Below, piece after piece: positions 2,481 to 60,064 of a DNA stretch of 60,064 bases. How positions within the stretch are numbered: the first letter of the stretch is position 1; every line of letters begins with the position of its first letter. Source of the DNA: a virus; the IMG/VR virus record IMGVR_UViG_3300048818_000149, positions 1 to 60,064 of that record. The stretch is one strand, 5' to 3'. The notes under the pieces were generated by a model, which saw only the letters and a list, made by a program, of their open reading frames with translations, made no database searches and was not told the origin of the DNA. A program made the position numbers and the translations under genes.

Positions 2481-2557
2481 TGTCTTTCTCTCCTGGGCCG
2501 AATGTGGATCGCAGCGCGCTGGCTTGGCCCATGCCAGCCGGGGCACGCTGTTTTCAG

Positions 2558-2737
2558 TTATCTCTTGCCGTGATAGTTTGGCCCGCCGGGGGCAGCTCCA
2601 GCGGCTCGCGCCAGTGCGCCAATGACTGCATCGGGCACGCCCTTGGCCTTCAGCTGAGCGGCTCGTCCGCCGTGACCCAGCTTGTTACTTTTGCCCCTGA
2701 AGGAGCCAGATTTCTTTATGCGCGTGCTCTCGGCCAT
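2558..2737 (-). CDS. Small basic protein, 59 aa (below the ORF-track cutoff)
   Basis: Hand translation: MAESTRIKKSGSFRGKSNKLGHGGRAAQLKAKGVPDAVIGALARAAGAAPGGPNYHGKR. Fills an otherwise empty gap in the operon. Confidence 0.4.
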   Translation of the reverse strand: MAESTRIKKSGSFRGKSNKLGHGGRAAQLKAKGVPDAVIGALARAAGAAPGGPNYHGKR

Positions 2738-2746
2738 CAGAGCGCT

Positions 2747-3037
2747 CTAGCCTTTCCGAATATGCGCCATGTCGGCTTTGCCCGCACGGGCACCCGACTT
2801 GATACTCCTCGCGGCATCGCCCAGATTGCCTCCGCCAGCGCCCAGGCCCGGTTCGCAATTCGTGCCCATGCGCTTCGAGACCACGTCCATTGGGAACGCT
2901 GGGCCAGCAGGGGACTTGCGAATATCTCTTGCGCCCTTGATGACTGGCCCAAGATCGTGCCCCATCGTGCCGTGCTCGGTCTTGTCCAAGTGGCTAGCCT
3001 TCTGGAAGCGCGCCAGTCTGTCCGGGGTCTCACCCAT
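2747..3037 (-). CDS. Hypothetical protein, 96 aa
   Basis: Protein-like composition, unlike the R/W-rich alternative frame 2737..3042. Start lies 1 nt after the stop of 3039..3320 (TGAAATG). Confidence 0.45.
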   Translation of the reverse strand: MGETPDRLARFQKASHLDKTEHGTMGHDLGPVIKGARDIRKSPAGPAFPMDVVSKRMGTNCEPGLGAGGGNLGDAARSIKSGARAGKADMAHIRKG

Positions 3038-3038
3038 T

Positions 3039-3320
3039 TCAACGTCTCCTGTTCAAGAGGCCCACAGCGGCCTTCAGATGATTAACTTTGGGCTCACCGG
3101 CCAGGCCGCCAACGATAGCTGGCGCGTCCTGGGCGTCAAATTCGCTCGTCTGCGCCCCGAACGCATTATCGGCCATCTCGTCAGACGCTGGAACGGGCAT
3201 CTTTCTGGCTGGCCTCTTGCGTTCGTGCGCCGTGACCATCACGCTCGTATTCTTCCCCGGATGGGAGATCATCTTACCTTTTGCGGCCATGCTCAGAGAG
3301 CCTCCATTCGGAATGCGCAA
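3039..3320 (-). CDS. Hypothetical protein, 93 aa
   Basis: Open frame tightly coupled to the downstream ORF. No recognisable motif. Confidence 0.4.
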   Translation of the reverse strand: MRIPNGGSLSMAAKGKMISHPGKNTSVMVTAHERKRPARKMPVPASDEMADNAFGAQTSEFDAQDAPAIVGGLAGEPKVNHLKAAVGLLNRRR

Positions 3321-3380
3321 GCATGGGAGGCTGGCACGGCGCGGTCAATGGGAAAATGCACGGCGGCTGCGGGCATGGCC

Positions 3381-3863
3381 TTAGATCGGCCCCCGGCCCA
3401 GCCAGTGCAGCACCGGCACGACATCGTTCTTGGCCATTTGGAGAGCCTCCAGCAGATTGCGTGCGACTAGCGCTCCGCGCGGAAGTGCGCTGAGCGACCG
3501 CACAACGATAGCGGCCCAGGTGGGCTTAGAGTAACACGCCCGAATAACGGGCAAATAAAGCTGTACTAGCTGACCCTGAGCCTGCTCAACGTTCTTGAGC
3601 TTACATTCTAGCACAAGCACTGCCCCAGCTAGCGGAACGACCACGTCTGGCTGGCAATAGCCTTTCTGGCCATCAGCAAGATACTCATACCACTGGCCAT
3701 GTCGGGCATTGGGCAGACTTCGCAGCACGTTGTCCGCGAATCTACTTTCATAGCTCAAGCCGAAGCCCTTAGAGCCCTTGGGCTTGCGGCGTGCTTGGGG
3801 TATGCACGCTGGGCGCGCAACCTCCTTGGCCCACTGGACGTTGCAGACTACGCGATGACTCAT
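3381..3863 (-). CDS. PD-(D/E)xK nuclease-fold protein
   Basis: Start at ATG 3863 (ATGA overlap with the upstream ORF). Motif QPDVVV...VLVLECKL fits the D...E-x-K restriction-endonuclease-like core. Confidence 0.55.
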   Translation of the reverse strand: MSHRVVCNVQWAKEVARPACIPQARRKPKGSKGFGLSYESRFADNVLRSLPNARHGQWYEYLADGQKGYCQPDVVVPLAGAVLVLECKLKNVEQAQGQLVQLYLPVIRACYSKPTWAAIVVRSLSALPRGALVARNLLEALQMAKNDVVPVLHWLGRGPI

Positions 3864-25371: not shown

Positions 25372-25845
25372 CATGCTTATCCGGTTGCCACACACAAACG
25401 CTGAGACCTACTAGATGTTGAAGCTCTTGTTTGGAAACGATTGGTTGCGGCGAAAGATTGCCGGCGACCCCGACGTAGAGACCGAGGCAGGCAAGCTGCG
25501 CTTCGGTCCTGATCCTGATTACCGCGAGCCAGAGCCGGACTGGCAAATTCCGCCAATTGAACGGCCCCGGCAGCCGTTTTTCACGATCAACAAGGAAAAA
25601 CCCATGACCACCTCCATAAAGGTTCACGTCAACGGAAAATACCGCGCAACCGTAAAGCAGAGCGGCAACGATCCGGTGACCGTCGAAGGCAACTACAACG
25701 GCGGCAGCGGCGAAAAGACGTTCTATTTGCCCCACCCGGCCAAAGCGACTTTTGAGATTTCGGAAGAGCAGGTTGCCGTTGGCGACGAGCGGCCCGCTAC
25801 GTGACCACAAGATGTAGGGCTGTGTGTCTAAACCGGATAAGCATG
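25372..25845. mobile_element. 474-bp element with terminal inverted repeats, flanked by an 8-bp direct repeat (ATGAATAT)
   Basis: catgcttatccggtt (25372-25386) is the reverse complement of 25831-25845. ACACACA continues the match after 3 mismatches. ATGAATAT occurs at 25364-25371 and 25846-25853. Confidence 0.6.
25415..25804 (+). CDS. Hypothetical protein inside the TIR element (129 aa, or 66 aa from ATG 25604)
   Basis: Internal ATG 25604 has AAGGAAAAACCC upstream (MTTSIKVHVNGKYRATV...). The true start is uncertain. Confidence 0.5.
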   Translation: MLKLLFGNDWLRRKIAGDPDVETEAGKLRFGPDPDYREPEPDWQIPPIERPRQPFFTINKEKPMTTSIKVHVNGKYRATVKQSGNDPVTVEGNYNGGSGEKTFYLPHPAKATFEISEEQVAVGDERPAT

Positions 25846-27309
25846 ATGAATATCATCAGTGACCAGTATGATCGGCTAGCGCCAGGAGACATCGTGGTGC
25901 TAGATGCCCGCCAGCGCAGCGAGCTTCAAGTGGACGAGGAGTTCGTCAGCTCTCTGCGGCACAGAGGCGTTCTAGTGCCGCTGCTGGTCACGCGAGCCCG
26001 CGTGCTAGTCGCCGGTGGCCGCAGGCGCCAAGCGGCCCTCAGCGCTGGGCTAGAGACCGTACCAGTTAGGTACGTGGAGGACCACGCAACGCCCAGCGAA
26101 CTGCGTCTGATCGAACTCGAAGAGAACATCAGACGCGCCGAGTTGCCCTGGCGAGATGAGTGTCGGGCAGTAAGCGAACTGCACCAGCTGTGGTGTGGCA
26201 CGCGAGAGAACTGGACCGCAGAGAAGAGCCAGAGCGTTCTGGGTCACGACATGGGCAGATGGCTACGGGTGGCCAGGGACCTCGACAATCCACGACTCGC
26301 TACGGCTACCAGCCTCTTCAGCGCATTTAATATCTGCCAGCGAATAGACCAGCGCGCAGCCGACGCGGCAATGGAAGACATTACGTATGCCAGCACAGCT
26401 CTGCTAGATGGAGCCACAGAGGAGAGCGTTGGCACAGACGAACTAGGAACGTTAGACGAATTCTCCGAGGTCACTTCCCCTCCCGGTGAAGCCTCGGAGA
26501 TAGGAGAGGCAGCTTCGGGCACTGGATCGCCCCCCGTCCCCACAGCTCGGGCTGCCTCTCCGACTTTGCGCAGACAGCCCACGAACGCTGGCGCTGCCCT
26601 GCCACCAGAGGATATTATCTGCACGGATTTCATGAAATGGGCCAGCAACTATGTCGGGCCGAGGTTCAACTTTATTCATTGCGATTTCCCTTATGGCAAG
26701 AAGGTCTTCGGCGGCCAGTGGGGAGGGAAGAACGACACAGGCTTTCAGTATGACGACTCGCCCGATGTCTACTGGGAGCTAGTTGCTAGTCTCTGCAAGA
26801 ACCTAGACAGGCTCATGGCTCCCAGTGCGCACCTGATGTTCTGGCTTAGTAGCGAAATCGAGATGCAGCATGCCACAATCGCCCGCTTTCGTGAACTGGC
26901 ACCCGAGCTTATATTCCAGCCTCGCGCTCTTGTATGGCTCAAGTCTGACAACGTCGGAATCGTGCCAGACCCCAAGCGCGGTCCGCGCTGGATCACAGAG
27001 TTGGCCCTTATGGCTTCTCGCGGCGATCGCGTGCTCGTGCAGCCGCTAGCGAATGCGTACAACGCGCCCACAGCGCGCACTCTTCACCCCAGTGCGAAGC
27101 CCGAGCCAGTTCTGCGGCACTTCTTCAGAATGTTCGTGGATGACACCAGCAGGGTATTAGACCCAACGTGTGGGGCAGGAAGCTCTTTACGTGCCGCTGA
27201 GAGTTTGAATGCACTTCAAGTTCTGGGAATTGAGAAAGACGAAAATTATGTCTTGGCAGCCAGAAAAGCTCTTCGTGAGTTCAGGACTTTGCGAGAACTG
27301 ACCAAATGA
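25843..27309 (+). CDS. ParB-like nuclease domain fused to a beta-class N6A/N4C DNA methyltransferase
   Basis: ParB box VAGGRRRQAA. Motif IV IHCDFPYG precedes motif I VLDPTCGAGSS. Start at ATGATG 25843/25846. Confidence 0.85.
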   Translation: MMNIISDQYDRLAPGDIVVLDARQRSELQVDEEFVSSLRHRGVLVPLLVTRARVLVAGGRRRQAALSAGLETVPVRYVEDHATPSELRLIELEENIRRAELPWRDECRAVSELHQLWCGTRENWTAEKSQSVLGHDMGRWLRVARDLDNPRLATATSLFSAFNICQRIDQRAADAAMEDITYASTALLDGATEESVGTDELGTLDEFSEVTSPPGEASEIGEAASGTGSPPVPTARAASPTLRRQPTNAGAALPPEDIICTDFMKWASNYVGPRFNFIHCDFPYGKKVFGGQWGGKNDTGFQYDDSPDVYWELVASLCKNLDRLMAPSAHLMFWLSSEIEMQHATIARFRELAPELIFQPRALVWLKSDNVGIVPDPKRGPRWITELALMASRGDRVLVQPLANAYNAPTARTLHPSAKPEPVLRHFFRMFVDDTSRVLDPTCGAGSSLRAAESLNALQVLGIEKDENYVLAARKALREFRTLRELTK

Positions 27310-27794
27310 GGAAAGCTGTTGGAAGTTGCATCGTAGACGGCTGTGAAAAGCCTAAGTATTCTCGTGGCTGGTGTCAGGCACACTATCAGCGCTGGTATCA
27401 TACTGGTAAACTTGAGACCGAACGACAGCCAGCAGGCGCTTGGAGAGACAAACTCTGTACAGTCCCGGGTTGCACTCGCCCGATGTGGATGGCAAAACAG
27501 GGAGTCTGTCAAGTTCATTATCACAGACTGATGCAGAATGGCACAACAGAAATATCACGTAATCCACCTGGAGCAGGTTCATTACAGGGTGGCTATCTCT
27601 GTTTTGTAGAAGACTATGAGCGAACATTCGATCATCGGCAAGTTGCAGCCAAGAAACTCGGCCGTGAGTTGTTGCCGACTGAGGTTGTTCATCACAAAGA
27701 TGAAAACAAGCTCAACAACGATCCAGATAATCTGGAAGTTTGCTCTTCTCAAAGCGAGCATATCTCAAAATTTCATGGAGGTCAATCAAAATGA
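27306..27794 (+). CDS. HNH homing endonuclease with two GC...G.C..HY.R zinc modules
   Basis: VVHHKDENKLNNDPDNLEVCSSQSEH (HNH). N-terminal CIVDGCEKPKYSRGWCQAHYQRW and CTVPGCTRPMWMAKQGVCQVHYHRL. Confidence 0.85.
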   Translation: MRKAVGSCIVDGCEKPKYSRGWCQAHYQRWYHTGKLETERQPAGAWRDKLCTVPGCTRPMWMAKQGVCQVHYHRLMQNGTTEISRNPPGAGSLQGGYLCFVEDYERTFDHRQVAAKKLGRELLPTEVVHHKDENKLNNDPDNLEVCSSQSEHISKFHGGQSK

Positions 27795-28039
27795 CAGACT
27801 TTCATTGGTGCTGGAGTTATAGACCACAAACTGACACTATGTGGGCTGTTGGTGTACGAGAACCGGCTGATAAAATAAGGCCGGGATTAATTATTTCTGC
27901 TGAGTCAGATCTGGCCCAAGAGCTATCGCGTGAACACGCTGCAGAAGTTGCAGCCTTTATCGAAGCGCCCCGCCCAGCCGTTGCGCCAGGCTATGAAGTC
28001 GATTTAACTCGCTTCGACGGACAAGGGAACTTACGATGA
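27791..28039 (+). CDS. Hypothetical protein, 82 aa, in the HNH cassette
   Basis: ATGA junctions at both ends. Confidence 0.5.
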   Translation: MTDFHWCWSYRPQTDTMWAVGVREPADKIRPGLIISAESDLAQELSREHAAEVAAFIEAPRPAVAPGYEVDLTRFDGQGNLR

Positions 28040-28203
28040 GGACGAGGATGCTGGACCCGACCTGCGGCGCCGGCAGCAGCCTTCGCGCTGCCGAGTCGCT
28101 GAACGCAGCGGCAATCTTGGGTATCGAAAGAGATGAGAACTATGTGCTGGCCGCACGGAAGGCGCTGAGAGAATTCCGAACACTTAGGGAGTTGACGAAA
28201 TGA
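28036..28203 (+). pseudogene. Stranded native 3' end of the methyltransferase gene (55-codon ORF still coupled by ATGA)
   Basis: MRTRM-LDPTCGAGSSLRAAESLNAAAILGIERDENYVLAARKALREFRTLRELTK. 46/50 aa identical to the end of 25843..27309. Confidence 0.7.
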
Positions 28204-28577
28204 AACAATGTTCAGTCTGTAACTGGCCACTCGAAACCGAGGGTGATCGTAGGGCAGCACGTACATGTAAGATACAGAATTGTCCGGGCCAGTTAGCTTA
28301 CACAGAAAGCCAACTCTCTGCCGATCCCAGCCGGGGCATTCTGAACGAGCGCAGAAAGACGCACGGTAGCTTCAAGGAGAGTGCCATAATCAGTCAGCAG
28401 ATCAAGCACGTCTTTCACTCATACGGACAGTATCCGACTGAGAACCCGATTTACTGCGAGGCGCTCGACATGATCGCGCTGAAACTTTCGCGCATCCTGT
28501 CCGGCCAGGCCAACTATAAAGATCACTGGACTGACATCGCGGGCTATGCCAAGCTGGCCGAGGAGGCGTGCAAATGA
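28200..28577 (+). CDS. DUF6378-like protein (dATP/dGTP diphosphohydrolase N-domain-like)
   Basis: RKTHGSFKESA...EALDMIALKLSRILSGQANYKDHWTDIAGYAKL matches that phage family as I remember it. Confidence 0.5.
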   Translation: MKQCSVCNWPLETEGDRRAARTCKIQNCPGQLAYTESQLSADPSRGILNERRKTHGSFKESAIISQQIKHVFHSYGQYPTENPIYCEALDMIALKLSRILSGQANYKDHWTDIAGYAKLAEEACK

Positions 28578-28900
28578 CAGACTTTCTTCTCACACTACGT
28601 CAAGCCGACATCGAGCGAGACAAGATTTGGAACCCCCAGAAACTTCTCTCGCTCAGCTTTCGCGGGAACGAACTGGGCGGTGAAATCGGTGAAGCCCAGA
28701 ATATTCTTAAGAAGATCGAGCGCGAGCGACTGGGTCTGCGTGGCAGCAGAGCCACGCCCGAGATGCTCGCAGAAGAGCTGGCGGACGGCGTAATCTGTAT
28801 TGATCTGATCGCGATGGAGTTCAATATCGCACTGGAGCAGGCCATTCGAGCCAAGTTCAACAAGACCTCGCGCGAGAGGGGACTGGACGTGCTGTTGTGA
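28574..28900 (+). CDS. MazG-like all-alpha nucleoside triphosphate pyrophosphohydrolase
   Basis: ELGGEIGEAQNILKKIER...EELADGVICIDLIA...KFNKTS. ATG 28574 (ATGA overlap, GAGGAGG upstream). Confidence 0.7.
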   Translation: MTDFLLTLRQADIERDKIWNPQKLLSLSFRGNELGGEIGEAQNILKKIERERLGLRGSRATPEMLAEELADGVICIDLIAMEFNIALEQAIRAKFNKTSRERGLDVLL

Positions 28901-29349
28901 AATGTTATATCTTCGACCTAGATGGCACGCTGGCCGACGACAGCCATCGCTGGCATCATGTCACCAAGACTGGTGACTGGGAGGCGTACTACGCGGCGGC
29001 CACAGAGGACAAGCCCATCAGTCACGTCATCGAAGTGGCCAAGGCGCTGCAGAGCGCAGGTTTCTTCATTGCTATCGTCACTGGGCGCAGCGAGAGCATA
29101 CGTGCTGAGACTGAAGACTGGCTTCTCGCGCACGGCATACTTTTCCAGGAACTCATTATGCGCAAGCGGACAGACCGCAGGCGAAATAGCGAACTGAAGC
29201 TAGAGGCCCTAGAGACTCTGCGCGCGAAGGGCTACATGCCGCTCATGGTCTTTGAGGACTTACCAGCCGCCGTTCGCACGTACAGACTGGCGGGCGTTCC
29301 GTGCGCGCAAGTGGCGGACCCAGAAGATTGGGATCATAAGCATCCATGA
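28897..29349 (+). CDS. HAD-superfamily phosphatase
   Basis: Motif I FDLDGTLAD, motif II VTGR, and a downstream VFEDL-type acidic motif. Confidence 0.75.
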   Translation: MKCYIFDLDGTLADDSHRWHHVTKTGDWEAYYAAATEDKPISHVIEVAKALQSAGFFIAIVTGRSESIRAETEDWLLAHGILFQELIMRKRTDRRRNSELKLEALETLRAKGYMPLMVFEDLPAAVRTYRLAGVPCAQVADPEDWDHKHP

Positions 29350-30476
29350 CCGCAGCGCCATTCGCCCACACGGCAGGACCGCAGCGCGCGCACACAGTCT
29401 TCGTGGGCGAAGCGTTCGGCGCTGAGGAAGAAGAAGTCGGCCAACCGTTCGTCGGCCAGTCTGGCCGCGAGTTCGCCCGTATGCTAGGGGAAGCTTGGCA
29501 GCAGCCCGCACTGCTCGCAGCGGCCGCTTCGCCCGCACGGGCAGACTTCATCGCACTGCGCAATGATTGGCTCAATGAGCACGGAGTGCTCTTGACGAAC
29601 GTCTTCGCCCTGCGGCCGCAGAATAATAACTTGGCCTACTTATGCTGCAGTAAAGAGGAACTCCCCAATGACTACACCCTCGGCCCGGTTAGAACGGAAG
29701 CTCCTCGCTACATACGGGGTGAATTCCTGCCTGAACTTGAGCGCCTCAGATCAGAAATCATGGCTGCTCAGCCAAACCTCGTCGTTGCTCTTGGCTCCAC
29801 CGCGCTCTGGGCGCTCCTCGGCACCTGCGGAATTGGAGCGCACCGCGGAACGACTACGATCAGCCAGCTCGTACCAGGACAGAAACTACTGGGGACGTAT
29901 CACCCAGCGGGAATAATGTACCAGTGGTCGCTACGCAGCACGATGCTGGCGGACTTGATGAAGGCAGAGAACGAGGCGAGACACGCAGACATAATTCGCC
30001 CCGTTCGTCACATTCATGTCTGCCCGGACATAGAGGATGTGGAGAGCACGACGCAGTGGCTGCTGGAGAATGCGAAGATACTCTCACCTGACATCGAGAC
30101 GATGAAGGGCCAAATACGCTGCATTGGCTTCGCGTGGACCAGAAGCGATGCCATCGTGATCCCCTTTATCCACAACCTTTCTGGTAAGAACTATTGGGAC
30201 TGGGAAGAGCACGAGATGCGCGCCTGGGCGTGCGTTCGGCGGCTACTGGAGAGTGACGTGCCCAAAGTGGGCCAGAATTTTATCTTCGACTTGCAGTATC
30301 TGACTCGCGCGGGCATACGACCGAAGAACTGCCAGCACGATACGATGTTGCTGCATCACGTACTTTATCCAGAACTACCAAAGGGACTCGGCTTCTTGGC
30401 CAGCATCTACTGTAATGATTTCGCCCACAAGCTGCTCCGAAAACGTGGCGAGGAGGAGTTGAAGCGCGATGAGTAA
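29346..30476 (+). CDS. DNA polymerase part 1: family-4-UDG-like domain fused to the front of the PolA 3'-5' exonuclease domain
   Basis: GEAFGAEEEEVGQPFVGQSG and TYHPAG (UDG-like). SPDIET (Exo I). VGQNFIFDLQYL (Exo II). Confidence 0.8.
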   Translation: MTAAPFAHTAGPQRAHTVFVGEAFGAEEEEVGQPFVGQSGREFARMLGEAWQQPALLAAAASPARADFIALRNDWLNEHGVLLTNVFALRPQNNNLAYLCCSKEELPNDYTLGPVRTEAPRYIRGEFLPELERLRSEIMAAQPNLVVALGSTALWALLGTCGIGAHRGTTTISQLVPGQKLLGTYHPAGIMYQWSLRSTMLADLMKAENEARHADIIRPVRHIHVCPDIEDVESTTQWLLENAKILSPDIETMKGQIRCIGFAWTRSDAIVIPFIHNLSGKNYWDWEEHEMRAWACVRRLLESDVPKVGQNFIFDLQYLTRAGIRPKNCQHDTMLLHHVLYPELPKGLGFLASIYCNDFAHKLLRKRGEEELKRDE

Positions 30477-31068
30477 AATCTGCAAAGTTGAAGGATGTAC
30501 TAATAGTGCTGGTTCATCACGCGGCCTGTGCAATACACACTACTTGCGTCTCATGCGACATGGAGATGTCAATGTAGTCAAAAAGAAAACACGGACTGGA
30601 GCCTGTACAGCAGCTGGCTGTTCTGAGCCAAGATACGCAAAGGCTCTGTGTAAGAAGCATTACTATGCTCAGTTCAAGCTCTGCGTAGTGGAAGGCTGTA
30701 ATGAGCCCGCCCGGTATGGAGGTGGCCTGTGTCTTGCCCACGGACGAAATTTGAAAAGAAATGGAACTGTTGATTATATTCGTAATACTCTTGCTGTCGG
30801 TGAAACAAGAGAAAGAAAAGACGGCTACATTGTCATCAATCATAGTGGAGAACGAAAATTAGAGCACATAGTTCTGGCTGAAAAGGCTCTTGGCAGACCG
30901 CTGCCATCGAAAGCTGTTGTTCATCATATAAACGAGGATAGAGCAGATAATCGAACTCCGTTCAACCTAATAATCTGTCCTAACCAAGAGTATCACATGC
31001 TCTTACATAAAAGAGCACGCGCACTCGGTTATCGTGGCAAGATTTACGAAATAGATGAGTTATTCTGA
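30469..31068 (+). CDS. HNH homing endonuclease (paralog of 27306..27794) interrupting the polymerase gene
   Basis: Three GC...C..HY modules and VVHHINEDRADNRTPFNLIICPNQEYHMLLH. Markedly lower GC. Overlaps the pol part 1 stop by 8 nt. Confidence 0.85.
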   Translation: MSKICKVEGCTNSAGSSRGLCNTHYLRLMRHGDVNVVKKKTRTGACTAAGCSEPRYAKALCKKHYYAQFKLCVVEGCNEPARYGGGLCLAHGRNLKRNGTVDYIRNTLAVGETRERKDGYIVINHSGERKLEHIVLAEKALGRPLPSKAVVHHINEDRADNRTPFNLIICPNQEYHMLLHKRARALGYRGKIYEIDELF

Positions 31069-31924: not shown

Positions 31925-32106
31925 AGCGTGGATCAAGACCACAGTACACGGTATGTCCGTTTGATCTACCCCTCCATGCTTATTTGCTGCATCGTGAGCA
32001 GGTACTGATCTATCAGATCGCTGCAATCAAAGGTGCTATTCGTGCTGCAGAGCAGGAATTAGAAAATACCACGCAAGCACAATATGCCTTGCAGAGTGCG
32101 AAATAA
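31921..32106 (+). CDS. Hypothetical protein, 61 aa, lower GC
   Basis: ATGA upstream and TAATG downstream junctions. Confidence 0.45.
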   Translation: MKRGSRPQYTVCPFDLPLHAYLLHREQVLIYQIAAIKGAIRAAEQELENTTQAQYALQSAK

Positions 32107-33650
32107 TGCTCATCCAGACTGACACACTCGATGCAGCGAAACTGAAGACGCTCGACGAGCCCACGACGCATCAGCTCTATTGCGGGCTAGATTGCTGCCT
32201 GACGCTAGAGGTCTTCGAGGAACTTTCTGCGCTCTGCACTCCAGCGGGCGCGGAGTCGACCGAGTGGCCCGTGTGCTACACGTTCGAGCGAGCGTTACAG
32301 GCGCCAGCGCTCGACATGATGCTTAGGGGCTTCAAAATAGATCAGTACGCGCGCTATGAGGGCATCGAGCGCACGAAAGCTGAGAGCCAAGTTATTCGCG
32401 GCCAGCTAGACGAGCTGGCCGAGTCGCTATGGGGAAAGGGCCTCAATCCTGGCTCGCATAAGCAGCTCAAAGAGTTCTTCTATGGCGCGATGAAGCTGCC
32501 CCCAGTCGTCACGAGCATACATGGCGAGAAAAAGACCAGTCTCAATCGTGAGAGCTTAGAGAAACTTGAGCAATACTTTCACGCGAGACCCATCGTCGCA
32601 CTGATCATTGAGGCCCGCGACTTGCAGAAACGTCTGAGCGTCCTCGAAACGGAGATTGGTCATGACGGCCGAATGCGGACCAGTTACAACATTGCTGGAA
32701 CTAACACAGGTCGATGGTCTTCTAGCTCGGACGTTACGGGGGCTGGAACAAACCTGCAGAATATCACGCCCGAACTGCGTCGGATGTTCGTGGCAGACAG
32801 AGGCTGGAAGCTCTGTGGTATTGACCTTGAGCAGGCTGAGTCACGCGAGGTGGGCTGGTTGTGTGGAATTCTTTTCGGCGACTGGAGGTATCTCGACGCC
32901 TGCGAGGGTGGTGACCTTCACACTACGACCGCCAAGCTCATATGGCCCTACTTGGCCTGGACGAACGATGCAAAAAAGGATCGCGAGATTGCTGACAGAG
33001 CATTCTACAGAGGCTTCAGCTATCGCGATATGAGCAAACGCGGCGGGCACGCCACAAACTATCTGTCAACACCATGGACAATGGCCAGAAACTTGAAGAT
33101 ACCTCTCGTGCTGGCTGAGAACTTTCAAGACAGCTACTTCGGAGCCTTTCCAGCTATTCCGCAATATCATCAGTGGACAGCAGAGCGGCTGCAACTAGAG
33201 GGCAGCATAACGACTCCATTCGGCCGAAAGAGACAATTCTTTGGGAGAAGAGACGATGACACGACTCTGCGTAAGGCCATTGCTTTTTCCCCTCAAAGCG
33301 CCACCGGGGACCGGCTTAATTTGGGTCTGTGGCGCATCTGGAAAGAGATGCCACAAGTTCAGCTGCTGGCTCAGGTTCATGACGCTGTGTACTTTCAGTA
33401 TCCTGAGACCCAGAATAGTGAACAGGAAGCGGCGTATGTACAACAGGCCTTGAGTCTTATTGAGATCTCGACCACGTCGAACGGACGAACATTCTGCGTG
33501 CCGGGAGAGGCCAAGATTGGTTGGAACTGGGCGGCAAGTGATCCGAAGAATAAACTTTTCGCTGACGGTAATCCCGAGGGCTTGCAGAAGTGGTCAGCCA
33601 CTCTGCCCGACACGAGAAGACGCAAAGCAGACATGGAGAGAACGTTATGA
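32106..33650 (+). CDS. DNA polymerase part 2: Exo III motif plus family A thumb/palm/fingers
   Basis: LYCGLDCCLTLEV (Yx3D Exo III), GRWSSS...TNLQNI, GIDLEQAESRE (motif A), KRGGHATNY (motif B), LAQVHDAVY (motif C). Confidence 0.9.
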   Translation: MLIQTDTLDAAKLKTLDEPTTHQLYCGLDCCLTLEVFEELSALCTPAGAESTEWPVCYTFERALQAPALDMMLRGFKIDQYARYEGIERTKAESQVIRGQLDELAESLWGKGLNPGSHKQLKEFFYGAMKLPPVVTSIHGEKKTSLNRESLEKLEQYFHARPIVALIIEARDLQKRLSVLETEIGHDGRMRTSYNIAGTNTGRWSSSSDVTGAGTNLQNITPELRRMFVADRGWKLCGIDLEQAESREVGWLCGILFGDWRYLDACEGGDLHTTTAKLIWPYLAWTNDAKKDREIADRAFYRGFSYRDMSKRGGHATNYLSTPWTMARNLKIPLVLAENFQDSYFGAFPAIPQYHQWTAERLQLEGSITTPFGRKRQFFGRRDDDTTLRKAIAFSPQSATGDRLNLGLWRIWKEMPQVQLLAQVHDAVYFQYPETQNSEQEAAYVQQALSLIEISTTSNGRTFCVPGEAKIGWNWAASDPKNKLFADGNPEGLQKWSATLPDTRRRKADMERTL

Positions 33651-57655: not shown

Positions 57656-59959
57656 CTACGCTACGGGCCTAAAGTTCTTGGCCTGGGCAAAGTCTCGCAC
57701 GTACCACTGGCCATTCTCGGCCTGCCGCGCGCCAGAGAGCGGTGGCCTCGCGCGTGTGGCAGCCTCGGGCAGCCCGGCAGGCACAGACTGGTCCAGCACG
57801 TCAGTCGTCGTGGCCTCAGCGGGATTAACTGTCGCCGTAAGTGACTCCGCGATGGCAGCCTCGACGATGGGTCTCAGCGTGTCCGGCGTAATCTCAGCCT
57901 CGCCCTCCTTCGCGGCCTCGATCAGCACAGCGAGCCTCTTCGTCAGAGCCTCAAAGATCGCGACTTCGTTCTTCTCCTCTTTGCCCCTCAGCTTAATGCG
58001 CAGAGTGGTCTGATCCTCTAGGCTCTTGCTGAAGAGATTCTGCAAGTTCTGAACTTGCTGCATCAGAGCTTGCTCGGTGGCCGACGGGCCTTCTCCGAGC
58101 GCATGAGGCGGCACCATGCGGCGAAGCCGTTCGGCAGCTTCTTCTGCATGCGGGAAGTCTGCGGCGCGGAATAGTATGTCGCCCAGTATGCTCGCCAGCT
58201 GCGGGCTCTGGGTAAGAACCAGCTTAAAGGCCTCGAAAGCCTCTTCACGCTGAGTGGCATAATTCGGCCCGATGTCAGCCTGAACTTCATACTTGCCCAC
58301 GTTCGGCGCCAGAACGTGGATGACACTCTGCTGATCCTCCATCATGACCTTCTGATACGCCTGCTTCGCCTGCGGGTCAATCGCGACGTTCATGGTAGTT
58401 CCGTCGTCAGCAAGGATCTGCATAAGGCGCTGCGTATCGTAGATATAGGGAAAGAGGTCCAGAACGATCTTCCCAATGTGCCGAATTGCAATGGCCAGAT
58501 TGTCTATGAAGTGGTAAGTCGCCGTGCTGGCTTGTCTCGTGCGCTCACCGATCTGCTTGGGCGTTCGCGGAATGCCGCCCTGCATACTCGCAGCGTACTG
58601 CCCACTGACCATAAGCAGGTCTTGCAGTGAACTCTGCATCTGCGTCGCATAGATTGGGGCGGCAGCGGGGGGCTGTATCCGCTGAGGAGGCGGGATAACG
58701 CTACCATCTTCCCGGAGGGACTTATACGGGAGGATACTGGTGTTAATTCGATTAGCATCGTTCCAGTAGGTTTCAAGCTCTTCCACTGCTTCAACAGGGG
58801 CAATCCACGGAGTCTTCGTCTGAAGACCCATAAATTCCACTGCCGAGCTAGCTGCATAGTTATACATGCGTTGGGCATCGAGCATGCTCCTCGTGTGGCT
58901 CTTACAGTCCCAAGTGCCCTCGATAATAGTCTCCTCTCCCCAGACGGGCACGATGGGAATATACTGTCCGGGCCAATCTTTCTCCTCAACGACTTGCCAG
59001 CCGATAATGAGCTTCCACTCGACCTGCTTGCGAATTAGTTCGCGCGACTGGACCAGGCCCTCTTCCTCATCTTGCCGGATCTGCTTCAGCAGGACAGCGC
59101 TACGGCCAGTCTTGACTTTCTCCAGTAGCGACTTCGCAATAAAGCCCCCTTGGAAGTCCTTCTGGCCAGCGTAGCCCGCAGGCAACGCATAGAGCACATC
59201 CTTGCGCTCTACGACGCGCCAATATTCCGCCACTCGAACGTAGTCATCATTGACCCAGCCTACAGTGCCCGCACCCATCGGGCTAGCAGTGGCTAGGTCT
59301 TTGTACTCAGCGTACTGGGGGTCCTTGTCGAACTCCTTACGCTCAATGTCCTCGAAGACAAAGGCGAACTTCATATCGCTGCGATCTGGCTCCTTCGCAT
59401 CGGGGTCGAGGTAGACGTTCAGCGGGTCCGCTTGCCGCTTAATGTAGATGTCTTGGTCGAAGTTCTTCTCGTTCGAGTAGTCCGTGGCCACGCGTATGTA
59501 GCCCCAGCCAGCGTTGACCTGAAAGTTCGTCGCGTGGTCGTAGGCCGCGCTGGCGTTGCTGATGTACTCGATGTGCTTCACAAGGGCGTTAAGAACTTTC
59601 GCAGAGTCAACTGAAGCTCCATCTGCCACCGGAAGAATTTTAATACCAGGTTTATTTTGCTTCGCGTCATTAACAATCTGTAAGTTGTGTTGCCGCGCCC
59701 CGTTGAGGGTGAGACTGGGACGATCATCCACCTCTCTTGTGCGGCGTAGGCCGTTGGGCCACTGGTAGCCGTTGTACGCATCCGCATGGGCAAACTTGTA
59801 ATCATCCAGAAACCTCGCTCGGGCAACTTTCTCGCGACTTACACAACGCTCGAAGCGATCCATGCCCTCGCGAACGGCATCGCTGACGCCAGCAGGAGCA
59901 TCGCCGGAGCCAAACGCTGGCGGGTTCGCATCGCGTGGGGGAGAACCGCGTTCAGACAC
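57656..59959 (-). CDS. Portal protein (P22 gp1-like)
   Basis: 767 aa. FLDDYKFAHADAYNGYQW...RPSLTLN...GWGYIRVATDY parallels the P22 portal N-terminal pattern. GTG 59959 lies inside the terminal overlap. Alternative start at Met33. Confidence 0.88.
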   Translation of the reverse strand: MSERGSPPRDANPPAFGSGDAPAGVSDAVREGMDRFERCVSREKVARARFLDDYKFAHADAYNGYQWPNGLRRTREVDDRPSLTLNGARQHNLQIVNDAKQNKPGIKILPVADGASVDSAKVLNALVKHIEYISNASAAYDHATNFQVNAGWGYIRVATDYSNEKNFDQDIYIKRQADPLNVYLDPDAKEPDRSDMKFAFVFEDIERKEFDKDPQYAEYKDLATASPMGAGTVGWVNDDYVRVAEYWRVVERKDVLYALPAGYAGQKDFQGGFIAKSLLEKVKTGRSAVLLKQIRQDEEEGLVQSRELIRKQVEWKLIIGWQVVEEKDWPGQYIPIVPVWGEETIIEGTWDCKSHTRSMLDAQRMYNYAASSAVEFMGLQTKTPWIAPVEAVEELETYWNDANRINTSILPYKSLREDGSVIPPPQRIQPPAAAPIYATQMQSSLQDLLMVSGQYAASMQGGIPRTPKQIGERTRQASTATYHFIDNLAIAIRHIGKIVLDLFPYIYDTQRLMQILADDGTTMNVAIDPQAKQAYQKVMMEDQQSVIHVLAPNVGKYEVQADIGPNYATQREEAFEAFKLVLTQSPQLASILGDILFRAADFPHAEEAAERLRRMVPPHALGEGPSATEQALMQQVQNLQNLFSKSLEDQTTLRIKLRGKEEKNEVAIFEALTKRLAVLIEAAKEGEAEITPDTLRPIVEAAIAESLTATVNPAEATTTDVLDQSVPAGLPEAATRARPPLSGARQAENGQWYVRDFAQAKNFRPVA

Positions 59960-60064
59960 TTACAGGCTCCACGACCTCAGCCACAAGTTGCCATTCACCA
60001 TTCTTCATACCGCGCCAAGCACGCACGATGTACTTATTACTATGCGTAGCGAAGCTAACCAAGT
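59938..60064. repeat. Terminal overlap, second copy of nt 1-127
   Basis: Exact identity with the window start. Confidence 0.95.

Follow-up and report, generated by a model that had tools for sequence, protein, structure and literature searches.

The DNA analysed here (the window, 60,064 nucleotides in length) is a 60-kb phage contig, IMGVR_UViG_3300048818_000149, positions 1-60,064. The locus of interest is a gene for a ParB-type DNA methyltransferase whose 3' end is present twice, the two copies being separated by a gene for an HNH endonuclease and a second small gene. Throughout, L-numbers designate related contigs or loci and P-numbers proteins. The intact methyltransferase gene ends in a segment referred to as tail A, the second copy of the 3' end lies in a short downstream open reading frame (ORF) called the orphan, and the letters A and B denote two allele classes of the 3' end that are defined below. 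The features of the locus, in nucleotides (nt) of the window and amino acids (aa) of the products, are the following.

25843..27309, plus strand: intact gene with ParB_N and N6/N4 DNA methyltransferase domains, 488 aa from the ATG at 25843 (the longest ORF starts from a GTG at 25801)
27088..27140, no strand assigned: conserved stretch of 53 nt that borders the insertion point on its left, without a mismatch between the window and L144 (100% identity)
27148..27309, plus strand: tail A, a replacement 3' end rich in A and T at third codon positions, 53 codons and a stop; left part of an 894-nt insert
27306..27794, plus strand: HNH_3 endonuclease gene (Pfam HNH_3), 162 aa, its start overlapping the methyltransferase stop (ATGA)
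27789..27803 and 28572-28586, plus strand: 15-nt exact repeat AAATGACAGACTTTC, at the HNH-stop/orfX-start and DUF6378-stop/MazG-like-start junctions
27791..28039, plus strand: orfX, 82 aa, second gene of the cassette, with homologues P0217-P0224
28036..28203, plus strand: orphan, a 55-codon ORF; codons 1-2 (ATG AGG) are junction sequence and 28042-28203 is the native B-class 3' end (TRMLDPTCG...ELTK and stop)
28186..28191, plus strand: AGGGAG, a Shine-Dalgarno-like sequence for the DUF6378 gene, inside the last codons of the orphan (read from alignments)
28200..28577, plus strand: DUF6378 gene (Pfam DUF6378), the native right-hand neighbour, its start overlapping the orphan stop (ATGA)

The methyltransferase exceeds the Pfam cut-offs for both ParB_N and N6_N4_Mtase, and the second match extends into the tail (residues 425-488 of 502). 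The protein P0001 is likewise 488 aa long. Motif I (DPxxGxG) lies in the C-terminal part of the methyltransferase, and its sequence LDPTCGAGSS is kept in all relatives. From this motif onwards the sequence LDPTCGAGSS...REFRTLRELTK and its stop codon are encoded twice, at 27157-27309 and at 28051-28203 (153 nt each). Alignment of the two segments gave 46 identical residues in 50 (92%) and 95 identical nt in 153 (62%), with a different codon at 39 of the 46 conserved residues and with 16, 5 and 37 mismatches at codon positions 1, 2 and 3, respectively. The residue and codon counts agree with those of an earlier reading of this DNA (the original prediction), and both segments are where it had put them; the homology of the orphan, however, begins three codons further left than it had stated, at 28042 (TRML). 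By BLASTP the orphan ORF matches the intact protein with E=1.6e-27, and this is the only diverged partial gene duplicate within the 60-kb window.

The two copies also differ in base composition. The G+C content of third codon positions (GC3) is low in tail A (0.37-0.41), the HNH gene (0.39) and orfX (0.37), and high in the orphan (0.67-0.70), in the 5' part of the methyltransferase gene (0.655) and in the downstream and surrounding genes (0.64-0.67). Thus the upstream copy prefers codons ending in A or T, like the HNH gene, and the orphan prefers those ending in G or C, like the genome, just as had been proposed. The ATG of the orphan at 28036 is embedded in an ATGA and overlaps the stop codon of orfX, another detail of the original prediction that the sequence bears out.

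In order to see the locus in its uninterrupted state, we compared the window with its relatives. Close relatives with an uninterrupted gene are L140, L141, L142, L143, L145 and L147, whose contigs are about 60 kb long and whose methyltransferases are 81-85% identical to that of the window at the aa level; L250 and L251 served as mid-distance relatives and 58 IMG/VR loci as distant ones. No GenBank phage has a DNA match to the window, and by protein only methyltransferases are found among GenBank phages, with 26-42% local identity over less than half of the query, so that the clade is without a cultured relative. In all six close relatives the methyltransferase gene is followed directly by the next gene, which is the DUF6378 gene in L142, L143 and L145; its start overlaps the intact methyltransferase stop in L143 and L145, and L142 has a 4-nt spacer instead. 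The DUF6378 neighbour is present in the distant relatives L021, L042, L046 and L049 as well. The empty site expected from the original prediction in phages lacking the nuclease is therefore at hand, as an intact gene that runs straight into its native neighbour. Neither a second tail nor an HNH gene follows the methyltransferase in the six close, the two mid-distance or the 58 IMG/VR relatives. When the own tail of each IMG/VR locus was compared with its downstream DNA, no further orphan appeared, and a search with the orphan peptide returned, besides the orphan of L144, only one gene truncated at the end of its contig. Neither the signature of A-class tails nor the conserved left flank was matched when IMG/VR was scanned for exact patterns.

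The contig L144 is the second genome with this arrangement. It is a 3068-nt NCBI metagenome contig with architecture and junction identical to those of the window, carrying a methyltransferase with an A-class tail, a 162-aa HNH protein, an orfX homologue (broken by a run of N in the record) and a 55-aa B-class orphan. The HNH genes of the two genomes share 93% identity at the aa and 81.5% at the DNA level. Independently, L139, another assembly of the same phage, is 100% identical to the window over 8762 nt; given this identity and the presence of the same arrangement in L144, the locus is not an assembly artefact. The nuclease thus shows a presence/absence polymorphism at one site, being found in the window and L144 and absent from the other relatives examined.

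These comparisons bear on the alternative that the original prediction had set against itself, namely that both tails are ancestral, the remains of an old tandem partial duplication of which one copy was lost in most relatives. Although two genomes share the arrangement and its junction, a single tail is present in 64 of the 66 related loci, the two copies in the window belong to different allele classes with different base composition, and the genes between them are compositionally foreign and absent elsewhere. We regard an ancestral tandem as very improbable indeed.

The assignment to allele classes rests on the DNA of the tails, which split into two groups with 100% bootstrap. Class A (GC3 0.38-0.43; within-class nt identity 75-81%) comprises the tails of the intact genes of the window and L144 together with those of L141 and L142. 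Class B (GC3 0.68-0.80; within-class nt identity 75-93%) comprises both orphans and the tails of L140, L143, L145 and L147. Identity between classes is 61-72%: tail A of the window is 76-81% identical to the tails of L141, L142 and L144 and 61-65% identical to B-class tails, and the window orphan shares 78-84% of its nt with the intact tails of class B (L140, L143, L145 and L147). The AGGGAG sequence that precedes the DUF6378 gene is found in B-class tails and is absent from A-class tails. The two tails linked to a nuclease, in the window and L144, are sisters (80% bootstrap). The orphan therefore groups with intact genes of the GC-rich class, as a native 3' end should, and the upstream tail has the AT-rich composition of the nuclease, a sister tail beside the other nuclease and a left edge that coincides with the start of the orphan, all in keeping with the imported 3' end that had been proposed.

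The boundaries of the insert follow from the distribution of fixed differences between the classes. In the last 600 nt of the gene, only one fixed A/B difference falls in the first 440 nt, against 17 in the final 158 nt. These 17 begin at 27149, within a codon (27148-27150) that specifies Ser in class A and Thr in class B, and this codon aligns with the first native codon of the orphan, at 28042, where homology to intact genes starts with ACG AGG ATG CTG (TRML). Since the A/B boundary coincides with the start of the orphan, the insert can be delimited as 27148-28041, 894 nt, consisting of tail A, the HNH gene and orfX. Its excision would restore the protein sequence of class B (...FVDDT/TRMLDPTCG...). 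The insertion site, which separates the codons for ...DDT from those for TRML..., precedes the AdoMet-binding motif I by four codons.

The A-class segment begins at the same codon in L141 and L142, which have no nuclease, and the genes of these two relatives are on that account recombinant at the same point. The tail that had been described as recoded is, judging from these two genomes, a naturally circulating allele: it is foreign and diverged, as had been claimed, but it is not a bespoke product of the cassette, as both the allele and its left boundary exist in nuclease-free relatives. In L140 the pattern is the reverse of that of class A: GC3 is low (0.36-0.44) in a patch shortly before the insertion point (equivalent to window 26971-27090) and high in the tail, which suggests that recombination tracts end near the insertion point on both sides.

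We consider it probable that the 894-nt segment is a mobile homing cassette, made up of tail A, the HNH gene and orfX, that has inserted in the ParB-methyltransferase gene; the interpretation given in the original prediction is supported as far as the comparison of sequences reaches. With a complete replacement 3' end brought in by the cassette, the methyltransferase stays intact and needs no splicing, and the GC3-rich native end would have been moved 894 nt downstream. According to this proposal, the HNH enzyme would cleave B-class alleles that have no insert, at the insertion point or close to it. A cassette-bearing genome would then serve as the template for repair of the break, its left homology arm being the 5' part of the gene and its right arm the orphan together with the downstream genes. 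As the replacement tail differs at most synonymous sites, invaded genomes would no longer carry the target. Three states are present among the eight close relatives, namely naive (B tail only), invaded (the window and L144) and nuclease-free with an A tail (L141 and L142), and their coexistence fits a cycle of invasion and loss.

Several points weigh against the homing cassette. That the B allele is cut near 27148, that the A allele resists cutting and that homing takes place is what we infer from the arrangement. Just two of the genomes found are invaded, and their cassettes have diverged to the same degree (about 80% nt identity) as the flanks, so that they bear no signature of recent horizontal spread. 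Apart from L144, no homologue of the HNH protein closer than about 40% over most of the protein was found in IMG/VR, JGI metagenome contigs, GTDB genomes or a 5.8-billion-protein database, and the L144 copy itself surfaced only through its methyltransferase. That L141 and L142 represent the stage of nuclease loss is drawn solely from the shared A/B boundary, and no nuclease remnant was seen in either of them. No donor genome with tail A and HNH and without an orphan was found. The flanking genes are about equally distant from all relatives, so that flank lineages are not assignable and a single-crossover test is uninformative. Finally, the first insertion needs a non-homologous join on the right-hand side, which could not be reconstructed.

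A rival history would be a single illegitimate (unequal) crossover without any targeted cleavage, in which the end of orfX from an A-lineage phage became linked to an internal point of the methyltransferase gene in a B-lineage phage. The donor would have had an intergenic HNH-orfX pair after its methyltransferase, and everything to the left of the join would be donor and everything to the right recipient. The 5' part and tail A are indeed contiguous in the nuclease-free L141 and L142, and the window could thus simply have a normal gene of class A; the usual location of free-standing nuclease genes is intergenic (PMC10448857), and the phage genomes of this clade are mosaic, for instance at the low-GC3 patch of L140. 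However, a random crossover point would have to match, to the codon, a pre-existing A/B boundary in a gene of about 1460 nt. Moreover, class A is not diverged from class B upstream of that boundary, the A-class genes being themselves recombinant there, no lineage signal separates the left from the right flank, and the expected genome with an A tail and HNH but no orphan is missing from those found. We therefore consider such a crossover quite improbable as the origin of the locus.

Selection on the locus was examined by comparing the window with L144 using the Nei-Gojobori method. The ratio of non-synonymous to synonymous divergence (omega) is 0.057 in the 5' part of the methyltransferase gene (synonymous divergence, dS, 1.2), 0.059 in tail A, 0.013 in the HNH gene and 0.053 in the orphan (dS 1.0). 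In the C-terminal 33 codons of orfX, the proportions of non-synonymous (pN) and synonymous (pS) differences are 0.15 and 0.79. The differences between the two orphans amount to 23.7 synonymous and 6.3 non-synonymous, and four aa changes were observed against 19.3±2.2 expected if the orphan were neutral; none of 200,000 simulations with 30 nucleotide differences gave a number as low. Neither orphan has a stop codon, an indel or a residue state absent from intact B-class tails. The omega values and the neutral simulation together indicate that the nuclease is strongly constrained and that the orphan is not decaying. The description of the orphan as a stranded native 3' end is accordingly correct in that it has been displaced downstream, but it is not a decaying leftover.

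The orphan could be kept coding-like either by repeated renewal through homing or by selection on itself. Under renewal, the orphan and the downstream genes would be the right homology arm, and each homing event into an intact B-class gene would leave a fresh orphan. The two orphans form no clade (21% bootstrap), and the orphan of L144 is 87% identical to the intact tail of L140 and 81% identical to the window orphan; together with the sister relationship of the two nuclease-linked A tails, this is in favour of renewal. The equal divergence of cassettes and flanks, in which we see no sign of recent transfer, argues against it.

The alternative is that the orphan is now a functional gene, selected either for a 55-aa product spanning the AdoMet-binding motifs I-III or for its translation, within a stably inherited and domesticated locus. 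This possibility overlaps with the homing cassette as an account of the locus and differs only on why the orphan is conserved. It would explain an omega so low at nearly saturated synonymous sites (dS about 1), with a frame free of stops, indels and changes of its own. It is also consistent with the translation signals, as an AAGGG lies 8 nt upstream of the ATG of the orphan, and the ATG, the ATGA overlap and the upstream AAGGG/AAGGA are kept in L144. Furthermore, vertical co-inheritance predicts a cassette and flanks that are equally diverged, and the 3' end of the orphan carries the AGGGAG ribosome-binding site of the next gene, in an 18-nt perfect run between the window and L144 (28186-28203). 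The conserved ATG, AAGGG, ATGA coupling and AGGGAG explain an open frame and a conserved 3' end, but the need for coupling and ribosome binding leaves the aa conservation across all 50 codons unexplained. No independent function is obvious for a 55-aa piece of a Rossmann fold, and the failure of the orphans to form a clade, with that of L144 nearer to the tail of L140, fits separate origins or renewal better. Overall, a functional orphan seems to us rather unlikely.

Returning to the homing cassette, its most general form can be put forward tentatively: in phages, a nuclease cassette may act as a splicing-free intron-like element with a replacement terminal 'exon', and the displaced end may be kept coding as a renewed right homology arm or as a translated 55-aa product or coupling relay.

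Regarding the cassette genes, the HNH protein matches Pfam HNH_3 with 38.8 bits (cut-off 24.8) and consists of two N-terminal Cys/His repeats and a C-terminal HNH domain. Against PHROG it matches 16 families at E<=0.01, of which 14 are annotated as HNH endonuclease, and no sequence match was found among solved structures. The HH...N...N...H motif is retained in the L144 copy. The gene has its own start and stop codons and is not within a self-splicing intron or intein. No Rfam match at E<=1 was found in 26800-28400, which indicates that no self-splicing intron is present. A group I intron or intein was also rejected on the grounds that the methyltransferase ORF stops before the HNH gene and that tail A is under coding selection.

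The second cassette gene, orfX, has no Pfam or PHROG match and belongs to an uncharacterised domain family. In one homologue, P0218, residues 245-325 match orfX and residues 1-228 match PHROG HNH endonuclease families (phrog_374, E=1.6e-66). No homology between this nuclease part and the HNH protein of the window was detected by BLASTP, the two being of different HNH families. The independent fusion of the orfX domain to an unrelated HNH endonuclease suggests that orfX could be a working partner of the HNH enzyme. The domain is not specific to nucleases, since other members of the family carry signal peptides.

The genes from the methyltransferase to the MazG-like gene, which lies downstream of the DUF6378 gene, are linked by ATGA stop/start overlaps at all five junctions, and no promoter or terminator above background was found at the locus. 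As a result of the two AAATGACAGACTTTC copies, orfX and the MazG-like gene both begin with MTDF; of the two copies, the one at the HNH/orfX junction recurs in L144. A 7-nt ATGAGGA at both ends of the HNH-orfX pair is probably meaningless, as stop/start junctions of the AAATGAG type are common here.

The longest perfect runs between the window and L144, over a background of about 80% identity, are 27088-27140 (53 nt) and 27789-27828 (40 nt), the latter at the point where the HNH gene stops and orfX starts. At the first stretch, 7-16 of 60 nt are different in other relatives. RNA structure was rejected as the cause of these two conserved stretches (z = 0.07 for 27088-27140 and -0.67 for the other). 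The 27088-27140 stretch is a candidate that could be half of the nuclease target or an operator. The unusual conservation of the flanks beside the insert is, like the absence of an orphan clade, no more than an indirect hint of unidirectional transfer into naive genomes during co-infection.

The closest parallel known to us is found in fungal mitochondria, where mobile ORF elements ('mORFs') create hybrid genes, as in atp6, atp9, cox2 and nad3 of Glomus sp. (PMC3630166); atp6 of Allomyces macrogynus is another mORF hybrid gene according to an original report cited in the same paper. As in mORFs, the host gene is completed by a foreign C-terminus that lies in frame ahead of the endonuclease ORF, its own C-terminus has been shifted downstream, and the native copy matches endonuclease-free relatives. 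The divergence between the copies is also similar, the two C-termini of Glomus atp6 being 63.5% identical in nt and 91% in aa (PMC3630166), compared with 62% and 92% here. In contrast to mORFs, the host is a bacteriophage rather than an organelle and the target is a DNA methyltransferase. The nuclease is of the HNH_3 family, not LAGLIDADG or GIY-YIG, and the likeness is functional rather than one of homology. In addition, the nuclease is a separate ORF coupled by an ATGA overlap instead of an in-frame fusion, a second cassette gene (orfX) is present, and the displaced end is an intact ORF with a start codon and an omega of about 0.05 across two genomes.

The phage literature describes intergenic free-standing, intron-borne and intein-borne nucleases as well as genes split in two (PMC10448857, PMC2988022, PMC2677866). 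A limited literature search found no example of gene-end replacement in phages, which is not proof of absence. Split genes include a nucleotide reductase gene divided by a homing endonuclease gene into two working peptides, a case cited in PMC10448857, and the 'fractured genes' of PMC2677866. The present locus resembles them in the position of the nuclease gene, which is located within an essential or conserved gene at a motif that is itself conserved, with no self-splicing element. However, those genes work as two fragments or through trans-splicing by split inteins, and here the protein is completed by the duplicated end, with a second fragment that is redundant.

Free-standing homing endonucleases of T4-like phages, such as SegB and mobE, sit between genes and take part in 'intronless homing' and marker exclusion, and their homing replaces flanking sequence. 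The carrier should be protected by polymorphism of the flanks, and markers in the flanks should undergo co-conversion. The window resembles the T4-like case in having a phage nuclease without intron or intein and with a presence/absence polymorphism. To our knowledge, the T4-like free-standing endonucleases do not carry a replacement gene end that leaves the native end as a tandem duplicate. The model of Goddard and Burt reportedly describes a cycle of invasion, degeneration and loss of homing endonuclease genes. Similar to this cycle, naive, invaded and nuclease-free but converted alleles coexist here among close relatives; unlike it, no stage with a degenerate nuclease was seen.

If the homing cassette is real, gene-end replacement, by which a selfish nuclease can settle in a conserved gene with the help of neither intron nor intein, would not be confined to fungal mitochondria but would occur in bacteriophages too, through an unrelated nuclease family. 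The DNA around codon 27148 would then be a defined homing site and a natural system for the study of a viral homing cycle. The locus provides a concrete candidate for the target site and a small clade with naive, invaded and converted alleles side by side, and it raises the puzzle of a redundant gene fragment that evolves like a working gene. It is also a warning for annotation, as short 'methylase-like' ORFs beside HNH genes and abrupt switches of codon usage within a gene can be footprints of such cassettes.

Other mobile or variable genes were observed in the window and its relatives. A second HNH_3 gene of low GC3 (0.36), at 30469-31068, is 32% identical to the first and lies between a UDG-exonuclease gene and a DNA_pol_A gene; its slot holds differing small ORFs or HNH-like genes in L142, L147 and L251, and on the basis of this variable content we regard it as another variable site for nuclease genes. 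The DNA polymerase of family A is itself divided between two genes, a UDG-like and 3'-5' exonuclease part (29346-30476) and the polymerase domain (32106-33650), with three to five small ORFs between them in the window and all close relatives; in L251, the UDG and the exonuclease are in turn encoded apart. At 39449-39811 there is a low-GC3 (0.38) ORF of 120 aa with no Pfam match, which may be a further foreign insert. Among the relatives, L147 carries an IS1595-family transposase gene (2492-3415), L250 an intein-type homing endonuclease (Hom_end_hint) inside a 597-aa gene (190-1983), and L142 an HNH_3 gene after a PD-(D/E)XK nuclease gene (1694-2179). Finally, the ends of the window overlap, its last 30 nt recurring at position 98 (regions 1-130 and 59935-60064), and it appears to be a complete phage genome, circularly closed or terminally redundant.

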